Of a DNA stretch of 64,000 bases, positions 3,717 to 33,707 are shown piece by piece; the first letter of the stretch is position 1; the number at the start of each line of letters is the position of its first letter. The notes beneath the pieces are model-generated. The model saw only the letters and a list, made by a program, of their open reading frames with translations, was not told the DNA's origin and made no database searches. A program made the position numbers and the translations under genes. The DNA is from an uncultured delta proteobacterium (GTDB lineage: Bacteria > Desulfobacterota > Binatia > UBA9968). The stretch is taken from NCBI GenBank assembly GCA_963771465.1, contig CAVYTU010000015.1, positions 576,001 to 640,000 on the forward strand, read 5' to 3'.

Positions 3717-4781
3717 TCAATAACCATACTTCTCGACGATAGGCTGCAGCCGTTCGAGGTTGCGCTTGACCTCATCGGTCTGGGAAATTTCCCGCCATGC
3801 TTCTTGAGCCAATTCTTGTTTGATGACTTCTTTGACATCTTGACGTGTAATCGCGCGCGATAGCACGCCGGCGTCTTGATGCTCTTGCAAAATCCGCCAC
3901 ACGCCTTCTTCGCTGACGTGGCCGTCTAATGGCACAAAGTAACTCTCCATCAGCGTCTGCGACAGCAGATCGCGCATGCGTTCGGACTCGTCAGGATTTT
4001 CGACTCTGAGCTTGGCCTCGACATAACGGTGAAATGGAAAATTCTCCGGCGCCATGCGCATGGAGTGATAACCGCGAATCTGCGCTTTCCAATAGCGGAC
4101 AATCAATTCCGGGTTTCGTTCAATAAACGATTTGCGCGCTATCGTGACCCGATCCGGCCGCCCATGGGGCTTGGTGTCTTCGACAAAATCATAGAGCTTG
4201 TTGAATCCCTGTTCCAGCAGCGTCGGAACAAACGGGTTGGCGACAATGGCCGCATCGGTCTCGCCGCGTAAAAGCGGTTTCCACGCTTCACGCATGGAGC
4301 CATAGAGGTACCCTACTTTCCACTCGACTTCACTTTGAGGATCGATGCCCTCCTTGCGCAGTTGGTGCTCGAACCACATGGTGGCGATGCCGCCCTTGTA
4401 CCAGTCACCGATTCGTTTGCCCTTGAGTTGGGCAATCGATTTGATGCCAGGGGCAGTCACGAGCGTGCCTGAAAACCAATTGCGCCAGCCGCCGATGATG
4501 CGCACTTCGTCATTGCCTAAAGCCCGCTCGGCAAAGGGCGTGCGCACGTGGACATCCGGAATAATATCGATTCGAAACGCAATCATGTCGCGTAGGACCG
4601 TGCCGACTTCATCATATCTTTCCCCGTCAGGACGGCTCGATTCGATCGCTTTGGGATTGACCTTGGCGTGGACGATCTCGACGTCAAGCCCCTCCTGAGC
4701 GAAAAGTCCTGCTTCCAGCGCGTAAGTCGCCGCTCTTACATGTCCCGCATGCCAACACCCGTTGCCTACGCGTAGCTTCAT
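3717..4781 (-). CDS. signal-peptide-less NMT1/SsuA-fold (PBP2) protein, CWHxxH family, copy 1 (354 aa)
   Basis: Start reassigned to MKLRVGNGCWH (GGAG RBS), giving 1065 nt like the six paralogs. GLFAQEGLDVEIV and IAQLKGKRIG are SsuA/TauA-like motifs. Confidence 0.85.
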   Translation of the reverse strand: MKLRVGNGCWHAGHVRAATYALEAGLFAQEGLDVEIVHAKVNPKAIESSRPDGERYDEVGTVLRDMIAFRIDIIPDVHVRTPFAERALGNDEVRIIGGWRNWFSGTLVTAPGIKSIAQLKGKRIGDWYKGGIATMWFEHQLRKEGIDPQSEVEWKVGYLYGSMREAWKPLLRGETDAAIVANPFVPTLLEQGFNKLYDFVEDTKPHGRPDRVTIARKSFIERNPELIVRYWKAQIRGYHSMRMAPENFPFHRYVEAKLRVENPDESERMRDLLSQTLMESYFVPLDGHVSEEGVWRILQEHQDAGVLSRAITRQDVKEVIKQELAQEAWREISQTDEVKRNLERLQPIVEKYGY

Positions 4782-12313: not shown

Positions 12314-12318
12314 TTCCC

Positions 12319-14300: not shown

Positions 14301-14456
14301 CTGAGATCTCCTTTGGGCGCGACGATGACTACGTTGAGAACTAACCCGATGTCATGGAAACTGTCAATTGTCCAGCCAATGATTTGACTCACCGCAGCAC
14401 CGGTAGTAACTATGCTAAAATATTCTGTGCGCGTACAGCAAAGGAACCTAAGCGTC

Positions 14457-15535: not shown

Positions 15536-17569
15536 TCACGCTGTAATCTTCGGATACGCGGTGAGCAAACTGATCGGCAGCTCTTCGACGCGAGTCACGA
15601 CTTCATAGGGCAAGTCTTCGCACATGGCGCGCATGTAGTCGGCGCCTTCCTTATCGACGGTCAAGCAAAACGGGCGAATCTTGCGGCGCGCCGCCTCGCG
15701 CAACGCCTGGCGGGTGTCATTGACGGCGTAGTCCTGATCGTTGGCGTCACGGCCGTAATCGCGGTCGTAGGGCCGACCGTCGCTGACGAGAAATAATAAT
15801 CGGGTTTGCGCCTCGACACGCTCCAGCTTTCGCACCGCGTGGCGAATCGCCGCGCCCATACGCGTGGCATGGGCCGGCGCGATGCCATCGACCCGGCGCG
15901 CAATGCGCTGGCTCAACGGCTCGGCGAAGTCTTTGACAACGTGAAATTCAACGTCGCCGCGGCCGCTGCCGGAAAAGGCGTACACCGCGTAGTTGTCGCC
16001 GATGCTTTCCAGCGCTTGCAGCAAGACGATGGCGGCCTGCTTTTCGATATCGATGGTGCGTTTGCGCAGCGGTTTGCCGCGCGCGTCGACGCCGCTGGCG
16101 ATTTGGCGCAGGTATTCGCTGTAACTCTCAGCCGTCGATAAGGTCGGACGAACGGCGCGGGCGGCTTCCAGCTCGACGTATTCATTAGTCGTCGCGCTCA
16201 TGTCGAGCAACAGGGCGACGGCAACGTCGCGCTGAGTGCGTTCGCGCCGCCAATAAATTTTTTCCGACGGCGTGACGCCGGTCTTTAGATCGACCACCAG
16301 ATCGACCAGTTGATCGAGATCGATATCTTCGCCGTCGTAGCGGCGGGTTACTTTGCGGAATAGCTCGGGCAAAAAATGTTCAAACCGCGCACGCACCTGG
16401 CCGACCAGCCAGCGGTATTCATTGAGCGTCTCGGTATAAAAATCCGAAGTGCCTTCTTCCATGATACGCTCGCGTACGCGGCACCAGCGATCTTTGAACG
16501 CGCCGGCGCGAAAATCCCACTCAGGATACAAATAACAAAAAGGCTCATCGCGCTGCAGCGGACCGTCGGCTTCGCTTTCGACCATCGCGTCCGCCGGCTG
16601 ATCTTCGGCGTTGGCTTTTTGTTCTTTGCGGTCGAGCAGCGACTCATCCATCTGTAAACGAAACTCGACTTCCGGCGGCGCTTTAAAAGGAACTTCTTCC
16701 GGATCGTTGACCGACTCCTGGAGCCGGTCGGGCGTCTCATCGTCGTCTCTGTGGTGCTGATGCTCGTGATCGTGATCATGACAGCAGTCGTCGTCAGCGA
16801 CGATGTTGGGCAGCGTAGCGGCGATCTGATAGATACGCAGCGCCGCTTCCGCGGAGTCTTCCACCGTGGCGCTGGCGTCGTTGACGCGCGACAGATGTTC
16901 GAGGGCGCTCGCCAAGGCGGGTTGCAAAATCTCCGGCGCCTCGCCCAATGGAGTGCCGCCGAGACTCGACTGCAGCAAACCCTCGATCAATGCTTCGCGC
17001 AGCGGCAACGCACCGAGCCGCGGCCGTTCAGCAAGAACTCGCAGTGCGACCTGCCGGTATGCGCTCTCGATGCCAGGATAACGCTGTAAAACTTTACCAT
17101 CGACGCGGGCGTCTTCGACACAATCAAAAATCGTCATGCCCAGCACAGGGTCGGGAAAAAGTTGGCGCAACGCTTGGCGATCGTCGCCGATTTGATCGGC
17201 GGAAAGTTTTTCCGCCAGCCCCGGACGCCAATCTTGAAATAGCCGCGACGCGCGGCGCAAGGAAAATTCAAAGGTGCCGAATTCAGCGTGGCCGGCTTGG
17301 TGGGTGACGATGACTTTGTACCAAGCGAAATTCTCACGCTCGGATGGGAAGCGATCGATTTTCGCCGGTAGCATGAGCGAAATCGCCTTGCCGTCATTGC
17401 CGGGTGTGGCCCAGCCGGCGCCGCGCGCGCTTGCGCCGGCGCGCGGAATCAGGCGAATCTCGTGGCCGGTTAACGCTTTAGTATAGAGCCGCAGTACCTC
17501 GCCGACTTTTTCTAACTCGGACGGCGTCGTCAGTGGACTTTCTGTAACCGTCATACTTTGTCTTGCCAA
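15536..17569 (-). CDS. cbbO: CbbO/NorD-family VWA-domain adaptor
   Basis: YPEWDF...WCRVRE, DGEDIDLD, RDVAVALLLDMSAT (MIDAS), TRMGAAIRHA, SDGRPYD, PFCLTVD. Start may be 17554. Confidence 0.88.
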   Translation of the reverse strand: MARQSMTVTESPLTTPSELEKVGEVLRLYTKALTGHEIRLIPRAGASARGAGWATPGNDGKAISLMLPAKIDRFPSERENFAWYKVIVTHQAGHAEFGTFEFSLRRASRLFQDWRPGLAEKLSADQIGDDRQALRQLFPDPVLGMTIFDCVEDARVDGKVLQRYPGIESAYRQVALRVLAERPRLGALPLREALIEGLLQSSLGGTPLGEAPEILQPALASALEHLSRVNDASATVEDSAEAALRIYQIAATLPNIVADDDCCHDHDHEHQHHRDDDETPDRLQESVNDPEEVPFKAPPEVEFRLQMDESLLDRKEQKANAEDQPADAMVESEADGPLQRDEPFCYLYPEWDFRAGAFKDRWCRVRERIMEEGTSDFYTETLNEYRWLVGQVRARFEHFLPELFRKVTRRYDGEDIDLDQLVDLVVDLKTGVTPSEKIYWRRERTQRDVAVALLLDMSATTNEYVELEAARAVRPTLSTAESYSEYLRQIASGVDARGKPLRKRTIDIEKQAAIVLLQALESIGDNYAVYAFSGSGRGDVEFHVVKDFAEPLSQRIARRVDGIAPAHATRMGAAIRHAVRKLERVEAQTRLLFLVSDGRPYDRDYGRDANDQDYAVNDTRQALREAARRKIRPFCLTVDKEGADYMRAMCEDLPYEVVTRVEELPISLLTAYPKITA

Positions 17570-19672: not shown

Positions 19673-20737
19673 TCAATACCCCACCCGTTCGATCACCGGT
19701 TGGAGCCGTTGGATGTTTTGTTTGACCTCGTCAGTCTGGGAGATTTCCGTCCAGGCTTCTTGGACGAGTTCCTGGCGCACAACGTCTTCGACGTCCCGGC
19801 GCGTGATCGACTTCGACAATACGCCGGCGTCTTGATGTTCCTGCAGGATGCGCCATACACCTTCGACGCTCAGCTGGCCGTCCATCGGGTGAAAGCGGCC
19901 TTCCATGACGTCGATAGGGCGAAGATCGCGCATGCGTTCGGAGTCGTCCGGGTTATCAACGCGAAGCTTGGCTTCAACGAAGCGCTGGAAAGGAAAATGC
20001 TCCGGCACGATGCGGATATATTGATAGCCGCGAATGGCCGCTTTCCAGTAACGCTTGATGACTTCCGGGTTGCGCTCGATGAACGATTTGCGCGCGACCG
20101 TTACGCGATCGGGCCGGCCGTGGGGTTTGGTGTCTTCGACGAAGTCGTAGAGCTTGTTGAAACCCTGCTCTAAAAGCCGCGCCACATAAGGCGTTTGCAC
20201 GATGGCGGCGTCGGTCTCGCCGGCGAGCAGCGGTTTCCAGGACGCTTTCATGGCCCCGTACTTCCAGCCGATCTTCCAGTCGATTTCGCCATCGGGATCG
20301 ACGCCGGCCTTACGCAACTGATGTTCGAACCACATGGTCGCGATGCCACCTTTATACCAATCGCCGATGCGTTTGCCTTTGAGGTCGGCGATGGACTTCA
20401 CCCCTGGCGCGGTGACCAATGCGCCCGGAAGCCAATTGCGCCAGCCGCCGATGATTCTCAGCTCGTCGTTGCCCAAGGCTCGCTCGGCGAAGGGCGTGCG
20501 CACGTGCACGTCGGTGATGATATCGATGCCGAAGGCGATCATGTCGCGCAGCACCGTGCCGATCTCGTCGTAACGCTCGCCGTCGGGACGGCTCGAACTG
20601 ATTCCTTTGGGATTCACTTTGGCGTGAACCACCTCAACATCCAACCCTTCTTGAGCATAGAACCCTGCCGCCACACAGACCGAAGCATCAAGTACATGTC
20701 CGGCATGCCAGCAACCGTTGCCCACTCGCAATTTCAT
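19673..20737 (-). CDS. signal-peptide-less PBP2-fold CWHxxH protein, copy 2 (354 aa)
   Basis: MKLRVGNGCWHAGHVLD, GAGGAG RBS, paralog family. Confidence 0.88.
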   Translation of the reverse strand: MKLRVGNGCWHAGHVLDASVCVAAGFYAQEGLDVEVVHAKVNPKGISSSRPDGERYDEIGTVLRDMIAFGIDIITDVHVRTPFAERALGNDELRIIGGWRNWLPGALVTAPGVKSIADLKGKRIGDWYKGGIATMWFEHQLRKAGVDPDGEIDWKIGWKYGAMKASWKPLLAGETDAAIVQTPYVARLLEQGFNKLYDFVEDTKPHGRPDRVTVARKSFIERNPEVIKRYWKAAIRGYQYIRIVPEHFPFQRFVEAKLRVDNPDDSERMRDLRPIDVMEGRFHPMDGQLSVEGVWRILQEHQDAGVLSKSITRRDVEDVVRQELVQEAWTEISQTDEVKQNIQRLQPVIERVGY

Positions 20738-20753
20738 CTGTCGAATACTCCTC

Positions 20754-21893
20754 TCAATCGCCCGCGGTAAATTCCGGCGCGTCTTCGAGTTGCTCGATGC
20801 CGCCGAGGCCGACGTCGACGAAGGGACTCGGCATCGCGCAGAGCAGCAGCACCCGGCTGTCGCCGGAATTAAAATGTTGATGCGCCGTCATGCGCGGGAT
20901 GCAGATAAACTCGCCGGCTTGCCAGTTCCAGCGCTCACCATCGTGCATATCGTAGCCGTTGCCTTCGATGACGAGGACTTGTTCTTCAGCAACGTGCAGA
21001 TGTTTGCCCGAGCGGCTGTGCGGCGGAATTTCTTGCAGATAGGCCCAAACCTGCCGCCCGCCGGTTTCAATATCCGGATGGACGAACCACTTGAGCTTGC
21101 CCTGCTGAGTCCACTCCCAGGCTTCCCTGCTTTCATGGACGACGTGATCGACCCGGCTCAAATACTGCACTTCATCGTGGTAAAGCTTCAAATAACGCTC
21201 GTAGGTGTTGTTCACCGGAACGCTCCACGGCACCGAACGTTTACGCGCTTGAAACACGTCTTCCAATTTCGGTTCCGGCCCGACCACCACTTCGATGTCG
21301 TCTTTGATGCCGAGAATACCCTTTTTGATTTTGTAGCCGCGCAGTTTGCCGTCGTCGTCGTAGAGCGGTTCCGTGCCGTCGGGAAATACCGGCTTCTCAG
21401 TCATCTTGTGCTGCTCGCGCCACATGAGCCCGAAGCTATGAAAGAGCCGAGTCGCTAGCGAGATCATCGCGCAGCCGACCTCAGCGTCACCGCCATGCTG
21501 ATGCACCGAGTACGGCGCGAAACAAACCATGTCGTGGGTTTCGAATTGAAAGGTGACGCCGTCGTTCATCTCCCAGCCTTTGCCGCTGAGACAAAAAATC
21601 GTTGGCGCAGCGATATGGCGATGGATACCACGCACCGGCACATGGGGCGCGATATCGATGATATGTGACGCGAAGCAATAGAGCGGGCCGCGAATCAAAA
21701 TATCATAGCTAGTCAAGTCGCCGGTCTGGTGCGGACTTCCCTTGCCCATGACCGTTTGTTTCGACGGCAGTGGCTGGAGCACGTGCGGCAGCGAGTTCAC
21801 CTGCCAATCTTCCTTAACTTCAAAGACAAAACGCTTCAACTGATCCGATTCTGCGGCCTGGCTTTTTTCTTCCCATGGCTCGAGGTAAGACAT
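20754..21893 (-). CDS. bicupin protein (gentisate 1,2-dioxygenase-like)
   Basis: HRHIAAP...VHQH and GKHLHVAEE...AHQHFN motifs. GGAGG RBS. Confidence 0.85.
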   Translation of the reverse strand: MSYLEPWEEKSQAAESDQLKRFVFEVKEDWQVNSLPHVLQPLPSKQTVMGKGSPHQTGDLTSYDILIRGPLYCFASHIIDIAPHVPVRGIHRHIAAPTIFCLSGKGWEMNDGVTFQFETHDMVCFAPYSVHQHGGDAEVGCAMISLATRLFHSFGLMWREQHKMTEKPVFPDGTEPLYDDDGKLRGYKIKKGILGIKDDIEVVVGPEPKLEDVFQARKRSVPWSVPVNNTYERYLKLYHDEVQYLSRVDHVVHESREAWEWTQQGKLKWFVHPDIETGGRQVWAYLQEIPPHSRSGKHLHVAEEQVLVIEGNGYDMHDGERWNWQAGEFICIPRMTAHQHFNSGDSRVLLLCAMPSPFVDVGLGGIEQLEDAPEFTAGD

Positions 21894-21934
21894 TTATTCC
21901 TCCGATTTGCTTTCACGATTTTCGAACCGCATGG

Positions 21935-23059
21935 CTACTTTAATTTCTCGGCCTGCGGCAGGCCGAAGGCTTTTTCAATCATTTCATACCAGCCGGGAAT
22001 TTGCGCGAAGCTATCCCATTTGTCGATGGATAGTTTTTTTCCCTGGGTTACTTTCGCCAATTCAGAACCAGGCCCGTAAACCGAAGACTTGAGCGGTTCA
22101 TACTTGTCGATGATGCGTTGGCCGGTTGGCGTGGCCTGAAACTCCAGCCACAACAGCGCGGCGTAGGGATTAGACGCTAAACGGGTAACGCCTTGCAGCT
22201 CGATCAATCGCACCGGCACCGGCTCGATGACTTTGCAGACGATCGATTTCTTCGGATGTTTCTCGGCGACCTCGACACAGGACTGATAATTGGCTTGCTG
22301 GTGCAACGCGTACTCGCCCACCGACATGGACGCCAGCGCGCGCGCATAGCCGCGCACCCAGATCGGTTCTTGCTCCTTGAGTTTAGCCGAGTAGTTTTTC
22401 ACCCACGCTTCACCCATGCCCGGCACCAACGACACCATGCCGTGGGGGCGAATGTCGATCAAAAATTTTCTGCCCTTGAGCTCCGGTCGAAGAAAGTCTT
22501 CCCAAGTATTGGGAACTTTTTCCGGCGCGATCAACTCCTTGTTATACACCACCGCCTGGATGGCGCTCGCCTCGGCGACGATGCTGCGCTTGTTGGGATC
22601 GATCATACCGATAGGAATCGCCAGGACGCCATGCTCGGCCATGCCGTAGATATCGATTTTTTTTACGTGCTCGGCAAATTCATTGTAGAAGTCGCGAGAG
22701 AGATGGATCGAATCCCAATTTTTGCCGCTCCCCGCCCGAAGCTCCATCAAAAAGCGTTGGGCCGCTTCGCTGCCGTCCACCGGGGTCAATGCGAAATCGA
22801 TGAACGGATATTTCTGCTTAAAAGCTTCGGTCAGCTGCTTGTAAGTTTCCTTGTCCAGGGAGCTGATGACTCTGAGCCTGCCCTCCTTCTTGGCCTTGGC
22901 GACAATTTCGTCGTGGCTGGCTTCGAAGACAAAGCCGTTTGCTTGCGCCGCTTGCCTGGATTTGAGCAACGCAGGAGTTGCGGCGTTGGCGCCTCGTGAA
23001 GCCAGCAAACCAAAAACGATTAACGCCGTAATCGCGAACTTTGGTCGTGCTTCTTTCAT
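21935..23059 (-). CDS. ABC substrate-binding protein (AfuA/FbpA-like)
   Basis: GAGGAG RBS before MKEARP, signal peptide, AKKEGRLRV, YNKELI..PNTWEDFLRPELKG. Confidence 0.87.
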   Translation of the reverse strand: MKEARPKFAITALIVFGLLASRGANAATPALLKSRQAAQANGFVFEASHDEIVAKAKKEGRLRVISSLDKETYKQLTEAFKQKYPFIDFALTPVDGSEAAQRFLMELRAGSGKNWDSIHLSRDFYNEFAEHVKKIDIYGMAEHGVLAIPIGMIDPNKRSIVAEASAIQAVVYNKELIAPEKVPNTWEDFLRPELKGRKFLIDIRPHGMVSLVPGMGEAWVKNYSAKLKEQEPIWVRGYARALASMSVGEYALHQQANYQSCVEVAEKHPKKSIVCKVIEPVPVRLIELQGVTRLASNPYAALLWLEFQATPTGQRIIDKYEPLKSSVYGPGSELAKVTQGKKLSIDKWDSFAQIPGWYEMIEKAFGLPQAEKLK

Positions 23060-23116
23060 GGTTAATTCTCCTCGCCTTTCTTTCTTGGACAGCAGCCGAG
23101 CCACTATTACGATTCA

Positions 23117-24181
23117 TCAATATCCCAACCGTTCGACCACCGGCTGCAAGCGGGCCAAGCTCCACTTCACCTCGTCGGTCTGGGATAGTTCTTCCCACGC
23201 CTCCTGAACCAACTCTTGACGCACCGCTTCTTCTACGTCGGCGCGCGCGATCGACTTCGATAGCACGCCGGCGTCCTGATGTTCCTGCAAAATCCGCCAC
23301 ACCCCTTCGACGCTCAATTGACCGTCCAGGGGAACGAAATAACTTTCCATCAAGGCGGGCGATAGCAGATCGCGCATGCGTTCGGATTCATCCGGATTAC
23401 CGACGCGCAGCTTGGCCTCGACGAAACGTTGGAAGGCAAAATTTTCCGGCACGATGCGCATGAAGTGATAGCCGCGGATGGTCGCCTTCCAGTAACGCTT
23501 GATCAATTCCGGGTTGCGTTGGATAAACGACTTGCGCGCCACCGTTACACGATCGGGACGGCCGTGCGGCTTACTGTCCTCGACGAAATCATAGATCTTG
23601 TTAAAGCCCCGTTCGAGAAGCTGGGGCACGAAGGGGTTGGCAACGATGGCCGCGTCGGTTTCGCCCGCGAGTAAGGGCTTCCACGCTTCGCGAATGGAGC
23701 CATATCGGTAGCCGATCTTCCAGTCGATGTCGCGATCCGGATCGATGCCGACTTTGCGCAACTGGTGCTCGTGCCACAGGGTGGCGATGCCGCCTTTGTA
23801 CCAGTCGCCGATGCGCTTGCCCTTGAAGTCGGCGATCGATTTGATACCGGGCGCGCCGATCAAGGTGCCGCGAAACTGATTGCGCCAGCCGCCGATAATC
23901 CTAAGCTCGTCATTGCCGAGCGCGCGTTCGGCAAAAGGTGTGCGCACATGGACGTCGGGAATGATGTCTATGTTGAAGGCAATCATGTCACGCAAGACCG
24001 TGCCGATCTCATCGTAGCGCTCGCCGTCGGGGCGGCTGGATTGGAAGCCAGCCGGATTGATCTTGGCGTGAACGACTTCGACATCAAGACCTTCTTGAGC
24101 GAAGAGCTCCGCCTCAAGGCAAATGGCGGCGGCGCGCACATGGCCGGCATGCCAGCAACCGTTGCCCACCCGAAGTTTCAT
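23117..24181 (-). CDS. signal-peptide-less PBP2-fold CWHxxH protein, copy 3 (354 aa)
   Basis: MKLRVGNGCWHAGHVRA, paralog family. Confidence 0.88.
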   Translation of the reverse strand: MKLRVGNGCWHAGHVRAAAICLEAELFAQEGLDVEVVHAKINPAGFQSSRPDGERYDEIGTVLRDMIAFNIDIIPDVHVRTPFAERALGNDELRIIGGWRNQFRGTLIGAPGIKSIADFKGKRIGDWYKGGIATLWHEHQLRKVGIDPDRDIDWKIGYRYGSIREAWKPLLAGETDAAIVANPFVPQLLERGFNKIYDFVEDSKPHGRPDRVTVARKSFIQRNPELIKRYWKATIRGYHFMRIVPENFAFQRFVEAKLRVGNPDESERMRDLLSPALMESYFVPLDGQLSVEGVWRILQEHQDAGVLSKSIARADVEEAVRQELVQEAWEELSQTDEVKWSLARLQPVVERLGY

Positions 24182-24244
24182 TCTTGTATCACCATTTCGA
24201 TTTTGAGCGCTGAGCCGTTCTTCTTTTTGCGGTTTTTACGTTGT

Positions 24245-25309
24245 TTAATAACCGAGCCGTTCGACGACCGGTTGAAGCCGCTCTAAACTTTGCTTCACGT
24301 CATCAGTCTGCGACAGTTCGGCCCATGCTTCTTGCACAAGTTCTTGGCGCACCAATTCTTCGACGTCACGCCAGGTGATGGACTGCGACAACACCCCCGC
24401 GTCCAAGTGCTCTTGTAAAATCCGCCATACGCCCTCGACGCTCAGCTGGCCGTCGAGCGGAAAAAAGCTCCCTTCCATGCCGTTTAGCTGGCCAAGGTTG
24501 CGCATGCGCTCAGCTTCATCAGGGTTGTTGACGCGAAGCTTGGATTCGACGAAGCGGACAAACGGATAGTGTTCCGGCGCCATGCGCATGAAGTGGTAGG
24601 TACGGATCGATGCTTTCCAATAACGTTTGATCAGTTCCGGGTTGCGCTCGATAAAAGACTTGCGCGCAACGGTGACGCGGTCGGGCCGGCCGTACGGCTT
24701 GCTGTCTTCGACGAAATCGTAAAGCTTGTTAAAGCCGCGCTCCAAAAGCATCGGCACGTAAGGGTTTTGCACGATCGCCGCATCGGTATCGCCGGCCAAT
24801 AGCGGCTTCCATGCCTCGCGCATGGAGCCGTATTGATAGCCGATCTTCCAGTCGATTTCGCGCGCCGGATCGATGGCGCGCTGGCGCAATTGGCGCTCGT
24901 ACCACAAGGTCGCGATGCCGCCTTTGTACCAATCGCCGATGCGCTTGCCGCGCAGGTCAGCGATCGATTTGATCCCTCCCGCCGCCATTAGCGTGCCGCG
25001 AAACTGATTGCGCCAGCCACCGATGATACGCACTTCGTCGTTGCCGAGCGCGCGCTCGGCAAAGGGCGTACGCACATGTACGTCGGGAATGATGTCGATG
25101 CCAAACGCGACCATGTCGCGCAGCACGGTGCCGACTTCATCGTAGCGCTCACCGTCCGGGCGGCTCGAATCGATACCCTTCGGATTGATCTTGGCGTGCA
25201 CCAGCTCAACGTCCAATCCTTCCTGGGCGAAAAAGCCAGCCTCAAGGCAAACCGCCGCGTGCTGAATATGAAAGGCATGCCAGCAACCGTTGCCCACTCG
25301 AAGTTTCAT
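24245..25309 (-). CDS. signal-peptide-less PBP2-fold CWHxxH protein, copy 4 (354 aa)
   Basis: MKLRVGNGCWHAFHIQH, paralog family. Confidence 0.88.
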   Translation of the reverse strand: MKLRVGNGCWHAFHIQHAAVCLEAGFFAQEGLDVELVHAKINPKGIDSSRPDGERYDEVGTVLRDMVAFGIDIIPDVHVRTPFAERALGNDEVRIIGGWRNQFRGTLMAAGGIKSIADLRGKRIGDWYKGGIATLWYERQLRQRAIDPAREIDWKIGYQYGSMREAWKPLLAGDTDAAIVQNPYVPMLLERGFNKLYDFVEDSKPYGRPDRVTVARKSFIERNPELIKRYWKASIRTYHFMRMAPEHYPFVRFVESKLRVNNPDEAERMRNLGQLNGMEGSFFPLDGQLSVEGVWRILQEHLDAGVLSQSITWRDVEELVRQELVQEAWAELSQTDDVKQSLERLQPVVERLGY

Positions 25310-25351
25310 TTTTCTAAAGCCTTGGTATATTTCCGGTGATTTTTATTGCAA

Positions 25352-26416
25352 TTAGTAGCCGAAGCGCTCGACCACGGGTTGGAGCCGTTCGAGGCTTCGT
25401 TTTACGTCGTCGGTCTGCGACATTTCGACCCACGCTTCCCGCACTAGGTCCTGGTGCACTACATCTTCGACGTCACGCCGGGTAATCGACTTCGGCAACA
25501 CACCAGCGTCTTCATGTTCCTCCAAGATTCGCCACACCCCTTCGACGGTCAACTGACCGTCGAGCGGATGAAAGGCGCTGTCCATGATGCTCATCGGCCT
25601 GAGATCGCGCATGCGCTCGGACTCATCCGGACTGTCGACCCGCAGCTTGGCTTCGACAAAGCGTTGAAAGGGAAAATTCTCCGGCACGATGCGCATGAAA
25701 TGATAACCGCGAATCGCCGCTTTCCAGTAGCGCTTGATTATTTCCGGGTTGCGTTCGACGAACGACTTGCGCGCCACCGTGACGCGGTCAGGTCGACCGT
25801 GAGGTTTGTTGTCCTCGACGAAATCGTAAAGCTTGTTGAAGCCGCGTTCCAGCAATTGTGGCACGAATGGATTCTGCACAATTGCCGCATCGGTTTCACC
25901 GGCTAGCAATGGCCGCCAGGCATCGCGCATGGAGCCGTATTTGTAACCGATCTTCCAATCGATCTCACGGTCCGGATCGATGCCCGCCTTGCGCATCTGA
26001 TGCTCGTACCACAGAGTGGCGATGCCGCCCTTGTACCAATCACCGACCCGTTTGCCGCGCAAAGCGGCGATCGATTCGATGCCCGGCGCAGCGACCAACG
26101 TGCCGGTGAACTGATTGCGCCAGCCGCCGATGATGCGCACTTCGTCGTTGCCCAGCGCGCGCTCGGCAAAGGGCGTGCGCACGTGCACGTCGGGAATGAT
26201 GTCGATGCCGAAAGCGACCATGTCGCGCAGCACCGTGCCCACTTCATCGTAGCGCTCGCCGTCCGGGCGGGTGGAATCGATGCCGCCGGGATTGATTTTT
26301 GCGTGTACGACCTCGACGTCAAGTCCCTCTTGAGCATAAAAGCCCGCTTCCAAAGTCACCGCAGCGTCAAGTACGTGCCGCGTGTGCCAGCAACCATTGC
26401 CCACTCGAAGTTTCAT
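25352..26416 (-). CDS. signal-peptide-less PBP2-fold CWHxxH protein, copy 5 (354 aa)
   Basis: MKLRVGNGCWHTRHVLD, paralog family. Confidence 0.88.
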   Translation of the reverse strand: MKLRVGNGCWHTRHVLDAAVTLEAGFYAQEGLDVEVVHAKINPGGIDSTRPDGERYDEVGTVLRDMVAFGIDIIPDVHVRTPFAERALGNDEVRIIGGWRNQFTGTLVAAPGIESIAALRGKRVGDWYKGGIATLWYEHQMRKAGIDPDREIDWKIGYKYGSMRDAWRPLLAGETDAAIVQNPFVPQLLERGFNKLYDFVEDNKPHGRPDRVTVARKSFVERNPEIIKRYWKAAIRGYHFMRIVPENFPFQRFVEAKLRVDSPDESERMRDLRPMSIMDSAFHPLDGQLTVEGVWRILEEHEDAGVLPKSITRRDVEDVVHQDLVREAWVEMSQTDDVKRSLERLQPVVERFGY

Positions 26417-26492
26417 TGGTCTGTTACCTTATCTGTATTAGAATCTCGCGCCGATGATTTTTTGCCTCATTACATTTTAGTTTTTGCTTGTT

Positions 26493-27557
26493 TTAATAGC
26501 CGTGCCGTTCGATGACGGATTGGAGCCGCTCGAGGTTGCGTTTGATTTCGTCGGTTTGGGAAATTTCCGCCCATGCTTCGCGCACCAGCTCTTGTTGTAT
26601 CATCTGCTCTACGTCGGCGCGGGTGATCGACTTCGAGAGCACACCGGCATCTTGATGTTCTTCAAGAATTCGCCACACGCCCTCGATGCTGAGCTGGCCG
26701 TCCATGGGGAAAAATGCGCCTTCCATCAATTCCATCGACCAGAGATCGCGCATGCGTTCCGATTCGTCGGGATTGGTGAGCCGGAGTTTGGCTTCGACAA
26801 AGCGCAGGAAAGGATAATTCTCCGGCGCGATGCGGATGAAATGGTAGCCGCGAATGGAAGCTTTCCAATAGCGTTTGATCAGTTCGGGATTGCGGGCCAC
26901 GAAACTGCGGCGAGCCACGGTGACGCGATCGGGCCGGCCGTGGGGCTTGCTGTCTTCAACGAAATCGTAAATCTTGTTGAAGCCGCGCTCGAGCAGCATC
27001 GGTACGTAGGGATTTTGCACGATCGCCGCGTCGGTATCGCCGGCAAGCAATGGCTTGTACGCTTCGCGCATGGAGCCAAATTTGTAGCCGATCTTCCACT
27101 GGATTTCGCGGTCGGGATCGACGCCCGCTTTGCGCAGCTTGTGCTCATACCACAGTGTCGCGACACCGCCTTTGTACCAATCGCCAACGCGTTTGCCGCG
27201 TAGATCGGCGAATGTTTTGATACCGGGCGCGCCGACTAACGTGCCGCGAAACTGATTGCGCCAGCCGCCGATGATCACGACCTCGTCGTTGCCGAGCACG
27301 CGCTCGGCGAACGGCGTGCGCACGTGCACGTCGGGAATGATGTCGATACCATAAGCGACCATGTCGCGCAGCACGGTGCCTACTTCGTCGTAGCGTTCAC
27401 CATCGGGACGACTGGCGTCGATCCCTTTGGGGTTGATTTTGGCGTGGACGATCTCCGCATCGATGCCTTCCCGAGTAAAAAACCCAGCTTCCTGACAGAG
27501 AAATGCGTGTTGGATATGAAAGGCGTGCCAGCAGGCGTTGCCAATTCTCAATTTCAT
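26493..27557 (-). CDS. signal-peptide-less PBP2-fold CWHxxH protein, copy 6 (354 aa)
   Basis: MKLRIGNACWHAFHIQH, AAGGGG RBS, paralog family. Confidence 0.88.
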   Translation of the reverse strand: MKLRIGNACWHAFHIQHAFLCQEAGFFTREGIDAEIVHAKINPKGIDASRPDGERYDEVGTVLRDMVAYGIDIIPDVHVRTPFAERVLGNDEVVIIGGWRNQFRGTLVGAPGIKTFADLRGKRVGDWYKGGVATLWYEHKLRKAGVDPDREIQWKIGYKFGSMREAYKPLLAGDTDAAIVQNPYVPMLLERGFNKIYDFVEDSKPHGRPDRVTVARRSFVARNPELIKRYWKASIRGYHFIRIAPENYPFLRFVEAKLRLTNPDESERMRDLWSMELMEGAFFPMDGQLSIEGVWRILEEHQDAGVLSKSITRADVEQMIQQELVREAWAEISQTDEIKRNLERLQSVIERHGY

Positions 27558-27680
27558 AATTGTCCCCTTCCGCCGGCACGCTATCGTTCTCGCGTTGAAA
27601 CTGTCAAGAGTGAATGACTCTTTTCATGGTGATTCGTCGCACGCGGCGCACCGTGGCGACAATTGCATCGGCATGATTGC

Positions 27681-27708
27681 TTGACAGACCGTTTTTAACA
27701 GTAGTAAT
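27681..27708 (+). promoter_or_regulatory. putative sigma70-type promoter (TTGACAG-N14-TAGTAAT) for copy 7
   Basis: Perfect TTGACA. The same motif and spacing recur at 28887. An opposing TGTCAA at 27602 could serve the divergent operon. Confidence 0.45.
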
Positions 27709-27773
27709 CCGGCATGTGGAAACGAGTGTCGTTTCGCAGGAAATAAACCTTTGGCGTCAAAAGGAGGAGAGCG

Positions 27774-28838
27774 ATGAAACTTCGAGTCGGTAATGCTTGT
27801 TGGCATGCCTTCCACGTGCAACACGCATTGCTGTGCCGCGAAGCCGGCTTCTACGCTGACGAGGGCATCGACGTCGAAATTGTTCACGCCAAAATCAACC
27901 CCAAGGCGATCGAGTCGAGCCGGCCCGGCGGCGAACGCTACGACGAAGTCGGCACCGTGCTGCGCGATATGGTCGCCTATGGTATCGACATCATTCCCGA
28001 CGTGCACGTGCGCACCCCATTCGCTGAACGCGCCCTCGGTAATGACGAAGTGCGCATCATCGGCGGCTGGCGCAATCACTACGGCGGCACGGCGATGGGC
28101 GCGCCAAGCGTCAAATCGATGGGTGATTTGAAAGGCAAGCGAATCGGCGACTGGTACAAAGGCGGTATTCACACCCTGTGGTGGGAGCGCCAGCTGCGTC
28201 AAGCGGGTCTCAGTCCGGAACGAGACGTGGAATGGAAAATCGGCTATCTCTTTGGCTCCATGCGCGAAGCGTGGAAGCCGCTGCAACGCGGCGAAACCGA
28301 CGCCGCGATTGTGCAAAACCCGTGGGTGCCGATGCTGCTCGAACAAGGCTACAATAAACTCTACGATTTCGATCACGAGACCAAGCCTTATGGCCGGCCC
28401 GATCGCGTCACCGTGGCGCGCAAGTCGTTCATCGAGCGTAATCCAGAAATCATCAAACGCTTTTGGAAGGCGGCGATCCGCGGTTATCATTTCATGCGTA
28501 TCGTGCCGGAGAACTTCGCCTTCCAGCGCTACATCGAAGCCAAGTTGCGCACCGATAATCCCGACGAAGCCGAGTGCATGCGCGACTTGACGCCGATGGC
28601 GATGATGGAGAGCCATTTCTTTCCGCTCGATGGCCAACTCACCGAGGAAGGCGTTTGGCGGATTCTTGATGAACATATCGACGGCGGCGTGCTGGATAAA
28701 TCGATTACCCGTTCCGATGCTGGCAGCCTGATTGATCAAGGTTTAGTCCAAGAGGCTTGGGCCGAGATTTCCCAGACCGACGGCGTGAAACGCAGTCTCG
28801 AGCGGCTCCAAGCCGTGATCGAGCGTGTCGGATACTGA
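27774..28838 (+). CDS. signal-peptide-less PBP2-fold CWHxxH protein, copy 7 (354 aa)
   Basis: MKLRVGNACWHAFHVQH, AGGAGG RBS, divergent from copies 2-6. Confidence 0.9.
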   Translation: MKLRVGNACWHAFHVQHALLCREAGFYADEGIDVEIVHAKINPKAIESSRPGGERYDEVGTVLRDMVAYGIDIIPDVHVRTPFAERALGNDEVRIIGGWRNHYGGTAMGAPSVKSMGDLKGKRIGDWYKGGIHTLWWERQLRQAGLSPERDVEWKIGYLFGSMREAWKPLQRGETDAAIVQNPWVPMLLEQGYNKLYDFDHETKPYGRPDRVTVARKSFIERNPEIIKRFWKAAIRGYHFMRIVPENFAFQRYIEAKLRTDNPDEAECMRDLTPMAMMESHFFPLDGQLTEEGVWRILDEHIDGGVLDKSITRSDAGSLIDQGLVQEAWAEISQTDGVKRSLERLQAVIERVGY

Positions 28839-28949: not shown

Positions 28950-30179
28950 ATGTATCGCACGAGCAAAGAAGAAAATGAAATCCTAACGCGAGTCAGCGCT
29001 GGCACTCCGATGGGAGAACTGCTTAGGCGCTACTGGTGGCCCATCGGCATCTCCGCTCACCTCAAGGAAAAACCAACATACATTCGCGTGCTCGGTGAAG
29101 ATTTGGTTTTATTTCGCGATAGCGCCGGACAGCCGGCGATCATCGGCGCCAAGTGCGCCCACCGCAGAGCCAATCTTTGTCTTGGCAACGTCGAGAAGGA
29201 CGGCCTGAGATGCCGCTATCACGGTTGGCTTTACGGTAACGACGGCCGCGTGCGGCAAACACCGGGGGAACCAGCAGGCAGCAAACTCAAAGACTCGATC
29301 ACCCATCCGGCTTATTCCGCACAGGAACTCGGCGGTTTCATTTTTACTTACATGGGTCCCAAACCGATACCGCTGCTGCCGCGTTATCATTTTCTCGCCG
29401 CTGAAGGCGAGCGCCATTCGATCGTGCAGGGTTTTGGCCGGTGCAATTGGCTGCAAGCGGTGGAAAATGGCATCGACCCGCTGCACGCGGGATTCTTGCA
29501 CGGCGATATCTGGGACGCAGTTTCCGCGGAGCCGGAAACAACCTGGTTCGAAGAAACCGATTTGGGGATCGTTTACAAAGTTATTCGTCCTGGGCGAAAA
29601 GCGGGCGAGTATAATTACCGTGAGCATCACTTGTTTATGCCTGGCATCAGCTCAGGCGGCGACGCATCGGTCAGCGAAGGCGCAGACAATCCGCCGCCTG
29701 ACGAATTGCCCGCGGTGACAGCGCGTTGGAGCGTGCCTCTCGACGACACGCGGATGATGCATATGCGGGTATTCTTCAAACCCGCGAGCAAAAACGCCAA
29801 GCCGCTGCAGTTCAAAACGCTGAGTTTGGCGCAGACCCGCACGTCGCCGTTTCAAGTCGAACCTTACGGCGAGTACACCGGATCGGACACGCCGACGCTC
29901 GGTTATACGATCCCCAGATCGATCGGCGGTGAGGACGCCGTCATGCTCGACAGCATGGGCACAATCGTCGATCGGGAGAATGAAAATTTAACCGTCGCCG
30001 ACGAGAGCATGGAGATGCTGCGCAAAATGTACTTGAAGCAGATCGCTGTGGTGCAAAACGGCGGTGACCCGCTCGGCGTGGTGCGCGATGAGAAAAAAAA
30101 TCAGCTGATTATCGCCGGTGGCCTGTATCGCTGGGTCTCGCCCGAGGAACGCAAACAGTTGCTCGAGAAAGCTGCGTAA
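28950..30179 (+). CDS. Rieske non-heme iron oxygenase alpha subunit
   Basis: CAH...CRYH, ENGIDPLHAGFLH, GGAGG RBS. Confidence 0.92.
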   Translation: MYRTSKEENEILTRVSAGTPMGELLRRYWWPIGISAHLKEKPTYIRVLGEDLVLFRDSAGQPAIIGAKCAHRRANLCLGNVEKDGLRCRYHGWLYGNDGRVRQTPGEPAGSKLKDSITHPAYSAQELGGFIFTYMGPKPIPLLPRYHFLAAEGERHSIVQGFGRCNWLQAVENGIDPLHAGFLHGDIWDAVSAEPETTWFEETDLGIVYKVIRPGRKAGEYNYREHHLFMPGISSGGDASVSEGADNPPPDELPAVTARWSVPLDDTRMMHMRVFFKPASKNAKPLQFKTLSLAQTRTSPFQVEPYGEYTGSDTPTLGYTIPRSIGGEDAVMLDSMGTIVDRENENLTVADESMEMLRKMYLKQIAVVQNGGDPLGVVRDEKKNQLIIAGGLYRWVSPEERKQLLEKAA

Positions 30180-30216
30180 ATCGCTGACGCCACTTGGCGA
30201 GACAGAGGTTGACTCC

Positions 30217-30678
30217 ATGGAAATCGAAAAAAAACTGAATGCGCTGGGATATCAAGTTCCGAGTGTTCCTGGCGCTGCCGGCAACTATATCGGCTGTGTC
30301 AGAGTCGGCAATCTGCTGTTTGTTGGCGGCAATACCGGACGGGTCAACGGATCGCGCCGCTACGAAGGCAAAGTTGGTGATAAGGTCAGTCTTGAACAGG
30401 CCTATGAGATGGCGCGAGATTGCGCACTCAATCATCTGGCGGTGATCAAAGCGGCTCTCGGCGATCTCGACCAGGTTGAACGGATCGTAAAGGTGTTAGT
30501 GTATGTCAACGTCGCGCCGCAGTTTAACGACATGGCTAAAGTAGCCAACGGCGAATCGGATTTGCTGGTGAGCCTGTGGGGTGAGCGCGGACGCCACACC
30601 CGCGCGGCGATCGGCGTCGCATCACTGGGCGGCGATGCGCCAGTGGAATGTGAAATCACGGTGCAAGTTCGTGATTAA
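30217..30678 (+). CDS. RidA/YjgF family protein
   Basis: GNY..VRVGNLLFV, VANGESDLL, GRHTRAAIGVASL..DAPVECE. GAGG RBS before MEIEKK. Confidence 0.88.
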   Translation: MEIEKKLNALGYQVPSVPGAAGNYIGCVRVGNLLFVGGNTGRVNGSRRYEGKVGDKVSLEQAYEMARDCALNHLAVIKAALGDLDQVERIVKVLVYVNVAPQFNDMAKVANGESDLLVSLWGERGRHTRAAIGVASLGGDAPVECEITVQVRD

Positions 30679-30855
30679 TTTCGCTCTGGCAAGGCTTGTT
30701 CTGAGCGCGGTGACACGACAACCGAAAAAGAAATTTCGCAATCGCAAGTTTAGCCACGAGCAACGCAAAATAGATTGGCAATTGTAATGTGATCGCCGAG
30801 CCGATGCATGACCAGGCGAACATTACGATGAGAAGCAAATAAGGAGGACAATTCA

Positions 30856-32190
30856 ATGGGAGCAGGACCGAATTTGGAAGGCATGGCGTTTACCAAAGAG
30901 GAAAACGAGCAACTGACCCGCGTCGGACCGGGAACGCTGATGGGCGATTTGTTCCGTCAATATTGGGTCGCAGTGGTGCCGACTGCCTTATTGCCTGCAT
31001 CGGCTAGCAAGCCGCTTCGGGTCCGGCTTTTGTGCGAAGATTTGGTGTTGTTTCGCGCCGGCAACGGCAAGATCGGTTTGGTCGGCGCCTACTGTCAGCA
31101 TCGTTTGGCGCCGCTTTATTTTGGCCGAATTGAAAATGATGGCATTCGCTGTCCCTATCATGGTTGGAAATACGCCACCGATGGCACCTGCATGGAGATG
31201 CCGAACATTCCCGCCGAGCAGCAATTCTGCGACGCAATCCATCATCCCGGTTATCCTTGCGTTGAGTACGGCGGCATCATTTGGACCTACATGGGTCCGG
31301 CGAAAGAATTGCCGGCATTGCCGGAATTTGAGTTCGCTTTGGTATCGGACGATTTGCGCCGCCATCGATTGTTTCGTTCGGAAGGAAACTATCTACAAGT
31401 AATGGAAGGCGGCATCGATCCGACTCATGTGATGTGGTTGCATTCGCCCTATAATTTGGCCGACGATGAAGTGGCACAAGTCCATCAGGGCCCGCAACAG
31501 GTGGTCGCCAACAAGTCGCGCAAACGCACCCCCGATCAAACCGATATCGTCGATACTCCCGGCGGCTTTATGTACGGCACGAGACGGAGCCTCAATGACG
31601 GTACGAGCCTGTGGCGTGTGAATCAATTCATGGTGCCGTTTTACAGCATGCCTCCGGGTGGCGATCTGCGCGGCGCGCGCATCTATGTGCCGATCGACGA
31701 TGAAAGTTGCGTCAAATGGCAGATCGCCTGGTATCCGAACCGAGAAACCAAGGAAAAGAGCCAGGAGACGCCGCGACTGATTCAAGACAACGAGGAATTT
31801 ATGGAGGCCACGAATCAGCCCTTTGGCTTCATTATCCCCAAGGCTAACAAATCCAATGATTACCTGGTCGATTGGAATACTCATAAAAGCAGAAGAATGG
31901 GAATCACCGGGGTCAATCTTCAGGACATGTGCGTCACCGAGGGCCAAGGGCCGACGCCGATTTTGGATCGCACTAAAGAAAATCTTTGCAGCGGCGATCA
32001 GACTGCCGGCAAAGCGCGCCGCATTTTGCTGCGGCTCGCCAAGGCGCTGCGCGAGCGCGGCGCTGCACCCTTGGGCGTGCGCGACCCAGAAATCTACCGG
32101 GTGCGCGGCACGTCGGTCGTCGTGCCGGACAATCTCAATTGGGTCGATTCGGTTAAAGAGCGCGTAACGGTGGCGAAAACCGCGGCGTGA
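30856..32190 (+). CDS. Rieske non-heme iron oxygenase alpha subunit, paralog of 2300-3652
   Basis: Rieske domain identical to the 2300 copy, EGGIDPTHVMWLH, AAGGAGG RBS. Confidence 0.92.
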   Translation: MGAGPNLEGMAFTKEENEQLTRVGPGTLMGDLFRQYWVAVVPTALLPASASKPLRVRLLCEDLVLFRAGNGKIGLVGAYCQHRLAPLYFGRIENDGIRCPYHGWKYATDGTCMEMPNIPAEQQFCDAIHHPGYPCVEYGGIIWTYMGPAKELPALPEFEFALVSDDLRRHRLFRSEGNYLQVMEGGIDPTHVMWLHSPYNLADDEVAQVHQGPQQVVANKSRKRTPDQTDIVDTPGGFMYGTRRSLNDGTSLWRVNQFMVPFYSMPPGGDLRGARIYVPIDDESCVKWQIAWYPNRETKEKSQETPRLIQDNEEFMEATNQPFGFIIPKANKSNDYLVDWNTHKSRRMGITGVNLQDMCVTEGQGPTPILDRTKENLCSGDQTAGKARRILLRLAKALRERGAAPLGVRDPEIYRVRGTSVVVPDNLNWVDSVKERVTVAKTAA

Positions 32191-33089: not shown

Positions 33090-33707
33090 TTACCATTCGC
33101 GCGTGATCTCGGCTGAGTCGACGACGTCGAAGATTCTTTCCAACGATTTGAGCGCTGCGTCGTAGGTATCTTTGAATGGACTGCCGACGCAGTCGCGCAC
33201 GATCACCGTATAGTAGCCGAGATTGAGCGCGTCGCGCGCGGTGCCGTCGATACCAGTCTCGATGGACGCGCCGGCGAGGATCAGAGTTTTGAGGCGATAT
33301 TTGCGCAGCCACCATTCGAAACTTGTGCCGAGAAACGCGTTGGGCAAGAATTCCTCGAAAACGATATCGTCGGATTGGGGCTCCAGACCCTGAGCGAAGG
33401 TCGCCGCACCGGCCGTCGGAATTGTTAACGCATTGGGATCGCTCAGGCGCATTTGTTTCATTCGCATACGGATCATCGGCGCGCCGAGGCTTTTCCAGTC
33501 CACCGGTCCCGGCGTCGAATACATCACGCGGACGCCGCTTTCTCGCGCCTTGGCCAGCAGAGCCTTCGTGTTCGTCAGCATGGCCGCGCCGTTGTAGCAG
33601 CGAGCAATCGCTGCCGCTGATACATTCCACAGCAACAAGCCGGAGTGTTTGGGCTCGACCACTTCGGCGAATTGCTCCAGAATCTCCATACCGGCCCAAC
33701 GAATCAT
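33090..33707 (-). CDS. isochorismatase-fold protein with degenerate catalytic triad
   Basis: Paralog of 6249-6896 (PNAFLGTSFEW, GIDGTARDA, RDCVG) with WN, EEF and G at the D/K/C positions. GGAGG RBS. Confidence 0.85.
   Translation of the reverse strand: MIRWAGMEILEQFAEVVEPKHSGLLLWNVSAAAIARCYNGAAMLTNTKALLAKARESGVRVMYSTPGPVDWKSLGAPMIRMRMKQMRLSDPNALTIPTAGAATFAQGLEPQSDDIVFEEFLPNAFLGTSFEWWLRKYRLKTLILAGASIETGIDGTARDALNLGYYTVIVRDCVGSPFKDTYDAALKSLERIFDVVDSAEITREW

Follow-up and report, generated by a model that had tools for sequence, protein, structure and literature searches.

Patch residues differ between, but are conserved within, the paralog lineages of a CWHxxH gene array in an uncultured Binatia genome

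The array described here lies in a 64-kb window, the whole stretch of DNA that was analyzed, of an uncultured delta proteobacterium assigned to the Binatia (UBA9968; assembly GCA_963771465.1, contig CAVYTU010000015.1, positions 576,001 to 640,000). The window holds seven copies, c1 to c7, of a gene whose product carries a CWHxxH motif near its N-terminus. The corresponding DNA pattern, TGYTGGCAY-N6-CAY, is found at seven sites in the window, where 0.06 would be expected, and none of 100 shuffles gave seven; every match falls on codons 9–14 of an intact open reading frame (ORF) of 354 amino acids (7/7). The seven paralogs align without gaps, and identity to c1 ranges from 73 to 81%. Whole-genome tblastn identified two additional close copies, c8 (353 aa; G000 C13:260549-261607) and c9 (354 aa; C13:396117-397178), both on a different contig, together with eight full-length relatives at 28–32% identity.

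The copies differ mainly at a few positions, and each is labeled here by the strings of three short patches, located after CWH, after WRN and near the C-terminus and given in that order. Copies c1 to c6 lie on the minus strand and c7, in divergent orientation, on the plus strand. Six of the seven have an ortholog in the same-genus genomes G007, G009 and G024, at 91–98% identity; the unpublished genome G005 entered one tally only, and none of the claims made here depends on it. Copy c1 (orthogroup OG1; 3720..4781), situated outside 19673-28838, the range given in a preliminary description of this DNA, carries AGHVRA, WFS and LLSQTLMESYFVP, with orthologs in G024 (95.5%) and G007 (91.0%). Copy c2 (OG2; 19676..20737) carries AGHVLD, WLP and LRPIDVMEGRFHP, with orthologs in G007 (96.6%) and G009 (93.8%). 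Copy c3 (OG3; 23120..24181), the protein used for modeling, carries AGHVRA, QFR and LLSPALMESYFVP; its sole match in the three genomes is a partial, 220-aa ortholog at a contig end in G009 (95.9%). Copy c4 (OG4; 24248..25309) carries AFHIQH, QFR and LGQLNGMEGSFFP; no ortholog of it was found in G007, G009 or G024, and its nearest relatives are the metagenome proteins P0002 (95%) and P0003 (92%). Copies c5 (OG5; 25355..26416; TRHVLD, QFT and LRPMSIMDSAFHP; orthologs in G007, 95.8%, and G009, 94.6%) and c6 (OG6; 26496..27557; AFHIQH, QFR and LWSMELMEGAFFP; G024, 96.0%, and G009, 94.6%) follow, and c7 (OG7; 27774..28835) carries AFHVQH, HYG and LTPMAMMESHFFP, with orthologs in G009 (91.2%) and G024 (92.0%, 348 aa). 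The c1-type ortholog in G007 (locus L002, G007:C27, 1940-3001) contains one in-frame TAG and may be a pseudogene or reflect a sequencing error.

Among the seven copies, 171 of the 354 columns vary, and the variation is clumped: the variance over six-residue windows is 10.95, compared with 6.07 after permutation, and 0 of 5000 permutations were as high. The most variable windows are 271–279, 15–23, 313–321, 102–104 and 144–150. The preliminary description had stated that the differences concentrate in short patches, and all of its strings were recovered: AGHVRA (c1, c3), AGHVLD/TRHVLD (c2, c5) and AFH(I/V)QH (c4, c6, c7) after CWH; WFSG, WLPG, QFRG in three copies, QFTG and HYGG after WRN; and LLS..LMESYFVP (c1, c3), LRP...M...FHP (c2, c5) and M(E)..FFP (c4, c6, c7) toward the C-terminus. 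Likewise, RNW and TMWFEH are common to c1 and c2, and RMAP to c1 and c4, as it had reported. In the alignment and the AlphaFold2 (AF2) model of c3, the N-terminal patch comprises codons 12–17 (24131..24148, minus strand); it follows the invariant C9-W10-H11, includes the invariant H14, and lies in the loop that follows strand 1 and in the initial turn of helix 1. The patch after GGWRN, codons 102–104 (23870..23878, minus strand), is placed between strands 93–100 and 105–109, at the lobe crossover. The C-terminal patch, codons 272–284 (23330..23368, minus strand), ends at P284 of a P-x-D-G motif conserved across the superfamily.

Positions 13, 16 and 17 in the N-terminal patch and 273, 281 and 283 in the C-terminal patch sort the copies identically, into {c1, c3}, {c2, c5} and {c4, c6, c7}. 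Residues exclusive to the first group are found in columns 16, 17, 273, 281 and 283, those exclusive to the second in columns 16, 17, 273 and 283, and those exclusive to the third in columns 13, 16, 17 and 283. A tree built from the 28 patch columns alone recovers the three classes with support of 98.6, 94.1 and 81–92; the same 28 codons form the patch set of the selection analysis below, where the remainder comprises 326 codons. When no patches are predefined, the 11 class-supporting columns still cluster, with 9 pairs lying within 10 residues of each other where 3.4 were expected (p=0.013); for a distance of 5 residues, p is 0.09. Over the ten orthogroups of the family, position 16 corresponds one-to-one with position 283 (R-V, L-H, Q-F), and with position 17 added the pairings read R,A-V; L,D-H; and Q,(H/V/A)-F. 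Positions 102–104 sort the copies otherwise (WFS, WLP/WFP, QFR, QFT and HYG), and since the ten orthogroups show eight distinct patch combinations once these positions are included, the three specificity classes proposed earlier are too simple: the three-way partition stands for the N- and C-terminal patches and breaks down over the full set.

The ten orthogroups are recovered, with starred support, in a tree of 94 rows. In 33 columns at least three orthogroup states occur together with within-group conservation of at least 0.9, several of them at 1.0, and these columns include 13, 16, 17, 102–104, 273, 274, 277, 280 and 283. Across 13 ortholog pairs, with a proportion of synonymous differences (pS) of 0.2–0.55, the ratio of nonsynonymous to synonymous rates (dN/dS) within orthogroups is 0.025 for the 28 patch codons versus 0.044 for the other 326. 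The patch residues are under purifying selection within orthogroups; this comparison of patch codons with the remainder reveals no elevated rate in them, and no sign of positive or relaxed selection. Between copies, all 36 pairs of the nine close copies have a pS of 0.55–0.74 and a saturated dS of 1.0–3.0, with omega at 0.065–0.19, and DNA identity between copies (70–77%) is lower than protein identity. The same patch combinations are kept in the orthologs of three other species. The patches thus vary between paralogs and not within a paralog lineage, and represent fixed, selected differences with no ongoing diversification; the term hypervariable holds for the comparison of paralogs and fails within each lineage. 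Because the patch positions differ between orthogroups and are 0.9–1.0 conserved within them, they very probably behave, as far as sequence can tell, like specificity determinants.

The history of the copies is not that of a single tree, the outcome that had been named beforehand as refuting mosaicism. The pairwise homoplasy index (PHI) is significant on amino acids for the seven copies (p=0.008) and for nine copies (0 of 2000 permutations), as well as on codon positions 1+2, but not on the saturated third positions. In approximately unbiased (AU) tests with one sequence per orthogroup (10 taxa) and trees taken from the same data, segments 1–110, 111–245 and 246–354 reject each other in five of six comparisons (p 9e-6 to 0.014), the sixth giving p=0.054, and a 53-row set leaves this picture unchanged. 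A single-breakpoint scan of the GARD type on 26 genome-derived sequences gave a flat topology gain of 16–31 log-likelihood units at every breakpoint; it has no null, and no claim is drawn from it. The conflict singled out for c1, between c3-like and c2-like sites, is not spatially structured (triplet max-chi-square, p=0.45). When the patch columns are left out, the tree recovers neither (OG1,OG3) nor (OG2,OG5), and the non-patch data do not reject the class clades (p-AU 0.22–0.63 for the whole protein, 0.12–0.74 per segment), so that non-patch sites leave the three classes neither favored nor rejected. On statistical grounds the mosaic ancestry is real, but it is old, and the classes are not clearly involved in it.

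A search for conversion tracts among the copies returned no near-identical stretch: the longest identical DNA run in any pair measures 50 nt, and the top identical runs all fall in the most conserved block, codons 69–102. In every pair of the nine copies pS is lower over codons 61–150 (mean 0.52 vs 0.73 at the ends), which could reflect constraint at the codon or nucleotide level or a very old multi-copy exchange. Pair-specific synonymous identity was considered as a mark of conversion and discarded, most pairs peaking in the same block, codons 50–160. The reshuffling within the array suggested earlier is therefore not supported as an ongoing process, given the saturated dS, the runs of at most 50 nt, the patch combinations kept in three other species and the low patch dN/dS; of the mosaicism claim, the rejection of one tree by PHI and segment AU tests holds, and current conversion leaves no sign.

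Sequences from metagenomes were also considered in this context. Two-parent mosaics occur among the metagenome proteins P0004, P0025, P0054, P0068, P0027/28, P0013 and P0023. The first four come from the source 'src', have no contig on record and switch parents near residue 190–210; we take this source to be a protein-level assembly, prone to chimeras, and these four are likely assembly chimeras. They call for caution in any recombination analysis built on such catalogues. P0013, P0023 and P0027/28 lie on contigs of 1.2–5.6 kb and switch parents at conserved blocks, where short-read assemblers can jump between paralogs; they may be recombinants or chimeras. Near-identical sequence is present in soil, rhizosphere and groundwater runs of many studies, and in 10 of these runs half or more of the sampled words are present. 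Contigs from three soil DNA runs and one RNA-library run match the region, mostly at 95–100%. Among 40 listed of 293 differences in these contigs, which drop rare variants, two fall in the patches: an Ile to Leu change at codon 275 of c2, yielding the residue that the G007 and G009 orthologs also have, and a change in the third base of codon 272. Contig joints between copies were not taken as recombinants because their sides are short (21–62 nt) and their offsets mostly non-homologous. Contigs of the RNA library cover parts of c2, c4, c5, c6 and c7, which is no proof of transcription.

All seven copies match the Pfam family NMT1 (PF09084, NMT1/THI5-like) at 45.8–56.3 bits, against a cut-off of 20.5, and PF13379 (NMT1_2) also scores above its cut-off in each. 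The AF2 model of c3 (predicted local distance difference test, pLDDT, 94.4; predicted template modeling score, pTM, 0.92) adopts the class II (cluster F) binding-protein fold, with Foldseek E-values down to 1e-14. VIA-align gives Z 20–22 for 3qsl, CmpA/NrtA, ThiY, Thi5, PqqT and the CmpC/NrtC cytoplasmic domain; over the cluster-F members Z is 18–22 across 270–309 aligned residues, at just 10–18% sequence identity to the solved structures. The top PDB profile match is the cytoplasmic regulatory domain of CmpC/NrtC (E=2.5e-14). Strand 1 of the model spans residues 2–6 and therefore leaves no space for a leader peptide; all copies and orthologs start with M(K/R)LR(V/I)GN, and neither an export signal nor a lipobox was seen in the alignment and model, which were inspected without a dedicated signal-peptide predictor. 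The copies thus appear to be leaderless and, by inference, cytoplasmic.

The family signature is a [C/H/S]-[W/Y]-H-x-x-H loop after strand 1. Relatives at 28–37% identity retain [C/H/S/N/G]-[Y/W/F]-H-x-x-H, GGWRN, GRPDR and P284-x-D-G287. Cys9 is invariant across the family at 52–100% identity and is C, H, S, N or G in the relatives at 28–37%; H78 and R80 are invariant among the copies. The family is small: a search of every 50%-identity representative yielded 672 matches at E<=1e-3 and 34 at E<=1e-30, and source names and atlas taxa point to Candidatus Binatota as the origin of most members so far. To our knowledge, Binatota is a widespread soil lineage known from metagenome-assembled genomes alone. 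Literature searches returned nothing on a CWHxxH protein family.

The two-lobe fold is common to the copies and to the cluster-F solute-binding proteins (SsuA, TauA, ThiY, NrtA/CmpA, PqqT), as are a conserved histidine-bearing loop after strand 1 and a GGWRN motif at the lobe crossover. Unlike these proteins, the copies lack a signal peptide or lipobox, score far under the SsuA_fam cut-off, are extended at the C-terminus by about 100 helical residues and form arrays in which as many as five copies stand side by side. The cytoplasmic NrtA-like domain of CmpC/NrtC (9uai, 9uak, 8wm7) matches the whole c3 model, residues 1–354, at Z of about 20, and provides an example of a binding-protein fold working inside the cell; in both cases genes for ATP-binding cassette (ABC) transporters are nearby. 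In CmpC/NrtC, however, this domain is fused C-terminally to an ABC ATPase, whereas each copy is an independent ORF of 354 aa, longer relatives carrying a fusion not having been searched for, and among 32 ORFs scanned none next to the array was identified as an ATPase gene.

Several leaderless enzymes, namely Thi5, the desulfinase DszB, MqnA/MqnD and 4,5-dihydroxyphthalate decarboxylase, share the fold as well, with Z values against the c3 model of 20.5 for Thi5, 17.3 for DszB, 17.2 for MqnD and 14.2 for 4,5-dihydroxyphthalate decarboxylase. The active site of Thi5, a hydroxymethylpyrimidine phosphate (HMP-P) synthase, has a lysine that binds pyridoxal phosphate and a donor histidine. Its sequence likeness to the copies is weak (E=2.5e-9 to 1.5e-6), a resemblance of fold and profile only. 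A suicide enzyme of the THI5 kind, needed in multiple copies, was considered as a cause of the copy number and rejected: the copies are 19–31% divergent at specific conserved positions and not near-identical. In DszB, a histidine and an arginine hold the sulfinate. The match to this enzyme is weak (E=0.017) and confined to residues 155–233; Cys9 lies in the loop after strand 1, where DszB too has a cysteine, Cys27, which is catalytic according to PMC6100217, and Cys9 would be at most a candidate counterpart of it. A parallel in genomic organization is offered by DppA1-A5 of Pseudomonas aeruginosa, which, according to PMC4206461, are paralogous binding proteins with different specificities that serve one pathway or transporter. 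Both sets comprise several paralogs of one family in one genome that differ at a limited set of positions, but DppA1-A5 are secreted and feed a transporter, while the CWHxxH copies are leaderless.

Taken together, we regard it as probable that the copies are ancient paralogs, each a conserved orthogroup, with class residues fixed early, old mosaicism and later whole-gene turnover. They would belong to a leaderless family with a class II fold of the NMT1/THI5-SsuA-NrtA kind, in which paralog-specific patch residues were presumably fixed early and then held by purifying selection. These residues may adjust the binding or activity of each copy, and the candidate ligands are small molecules, related to one another, on which the Rieske oxygenases, cupins, isochorismatase-like hydrolases and ABC importers encoded nearby would operate. 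The mosaic signal would have been left by old exchanges between paralogs, and since the species of the genus diverged, change in the array would have come from whole genes being gained, lost and rearranged rather than from the shuffling of patches. This is an ordinary pattern of paralog specialization in an uncharacterized family. The main outcome is a corrected reading of the locus, whose variation is ancient and stabilized and betrays no live mechanism of diversification; the preliminary description was correct in its observation and half right in its interpretation.

Several points weigh against this account. No NCBIfam model reaches its cut-off, SsuA_fam (TIGR01728) scoring 46.7 bits against 163.5. 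Fold topology alone would put the first patch (loop and helix start) and the second (lobe crossover) at ligand-contact elements, and for the third patch a functional role is suggested by its position beside the conserved P-x-D-G. Class-supporting columns make up 6 of the 23 variable patch columns versus 5 of the 148 variable non-patch columns (26, 181, 187, 318 and 330; Fisher p=0.0009), a comparison for which the patch limits were set after the pattern was seen. For positions 16/17 versus 283 there are at most four independent contrasts (p>=0.5), too few to demonstrate co-evolution beyond shared ancestry. The metagenome proteins P0013, P0027, P0028, P0015 and P0043 carry uncoupled patches, so that, if they are real, the pairing of patches is not obligatory. 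As regards mosaicism, the segment trees may overstate the conflict on account of their derivation from the data tested. Max-chi-square triplets indicate a c2-like stretch in c5 at 243–319 (p=0.0067, 300 permutations) and a c1-like stretch in c2 at 41–141 (p=0.017), and none of the ten triplets survives Bonferroni correction.

Plain descent would explain the classes without any functional coupling: {1,3}, {2,5} and {4,6,7,8} would be true clades of a rapid early radiation, and the patches fast loops that keep clade marks. The tolerance of the non-patch columns for each of the three clades, and for all of them together, fits this view, as do the full-length 53-row tree, which gives (OG1,OG3) at 99.5, (OG2,OG5) at 93.3 and OG4/6/8/7 at 95.9, and the direct adjacency of the c2 and c5 types in G007, as expected for a tandem duplicate pair. 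Fast loops, however, would not be invariant within orthogroups, nor would their dN/dS fall below that of the rest of the protein; the scarcity of class-supporting columns outside the patches, the absence of (OG1,OG3) and (OG2,OG5) from the patch-free tree and the conflict between segment trees also argue against it, and we consider this explanation unlikely. Convergence, in which members of one class (c2 and c5, for instance) would lack a sister relationship and would have gained the same pocket residues independently for the same ligand, draws on the 94-row tree, where OG5 stands beside OG4 (support 91) and not OG2, on segment 111–245, where OG5 joins OG4/OG6 (83.8), on the patch-free tree, which parts OG2 from OG5 and OG1 from OG3, and on the recurrence of D17 and H283 in the separately placed P0060. 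Non-patch sites, though, do not reject the (OG2,OG5) clade (p=0.42), and the grouping of OG5 with OG4 may stem from the chimera-like P0004 and P0013. Furthermore, c5 is nearer to c2 than to c4 over about 240–330, beyond the patch, for which shared ancestry or recombination is a better fit, and convergence appears quite improbable.

Active gene conversion within the array, reshuffling pocket modules, could call upon the PHI result and the incongruence of segments, on the clean two-parent mosaics among metagenome proteins, and on the slightly greater likeness of the tandem copies c3–c6 to one another than of the dispersed copies. Against it stand the lack of tracts, with the longest runs confined to the conserved block, a dip in pS that is common to all pairs and not pair-specific, the saturation of dS, and the identical patch combinations in the orthologs of three other species. 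Of the clean mosaics, four are the probable chimeras without a contig, and the others sit on short contigs with breakpoints at conserved blocks. Conversion of this kind is hence a highly improbable cause of the pattern, and ancient paralogs with early-fixed patch residues remain the reading we prefer.

If the patch residues set ligand choice, the family would offer a compact natural experiment in retuning a binding-protein fold, with ten orthogroups, an identity of about 75% and just a few positions that define the classes, and the array could point to the substrates of an uncharacterized Binatota catabolic island. More speculatively, and with considerable doubt, we hypothesize that the CWHxxH proteins constitute a new cytoplasmic, stand-alone offshoot of the binding-protein fold and serve either as metal-dependent enzymes or as substrate-delivery or sensor proteins for the Rieske oxygenases nearby. 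The [C/H]-x-H-x-x-H loop might then hold a metal or substrate, and positions 16/17 with 283, plus 102–104, might form a combinatorial specificity code of at least eight variants, assembled with the help of early exchange between paralogs.

The gene content around the array differs among related genomes. In G009 and G024, an OG9-type gene lies between the c5 and c6 types. Where the c2 and c5 types adjoin in G007, the cupin, the binding-protein gene, c3 and c4 that separate them in the window are all missing. The first two of these belong outside the family: the cupin gene between c2 and c3 (20754..21893, minus strand) shows weak likeness to gentisate and 5-aminosalicylate 1,2-dioxygenases, and the neighboring gene (21935..23104, minus strand) encodes a putative secreted solute-binding protein, hydrophobic at its N-terminus, that matches no Pfam or NCBIfam model. 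In a soil contig of 682 nt (run X3, window 23063-24267; about 90% identity), the start of this binding-protein gene and the 3' part of a c4-type gene are linked through 74 intervening nucleotides of other sequence, and a related strain appears to lack c3 at this place. From c7 through the second isochorismatase gene, gene order is syntenic in G009; this span includes a Rieske/LigXa-type oxygenase, a RidA-like protein and a second Rieske/LigXa-type oxygenase (28950..32190, plus strand), which have their counterparts at locus L001 of that genome. At the same locus (G009:C1), a 266-aa ORF at 3837-4637 separates the c6-type gene from the c7-type gene; in the window, a spacer of 216 nt takes its place.

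The array is situated within an island of about 35 kb (window 2300-36828) composed of recurring module types. It contains three Rieske/LigXa-type oxygenases (2300-3652, 28950-30179 and 30856-32190), two cupins (6951-8096 and 20754-21893), two isochorismatase-family genes (6249-6896 and 33090-33707) and two additional NMT1-like genes, which belong to a different subfamily (5022-6023 and 12103-13194). Three fused double-permease genes of the ABC type (about 580–595 aa) and several secreted binding proteins are present as well, and the neighborhood also includes a short-chain dehydrogenase/reductase (SDR) and RidA. To judge by these gene assignments, the neighborhood looks catabolic and resembles those of aromatic catabolism. 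The window also carries a CbbQ/NorQ-type AAA ATPase gene (14412-15287) beside an ORF of 677 aa (15536-17569); the latter, just upstream of the permease and c2, contains a stretch rich in His and Asp and matches no Pfam family at E<=1e-5.

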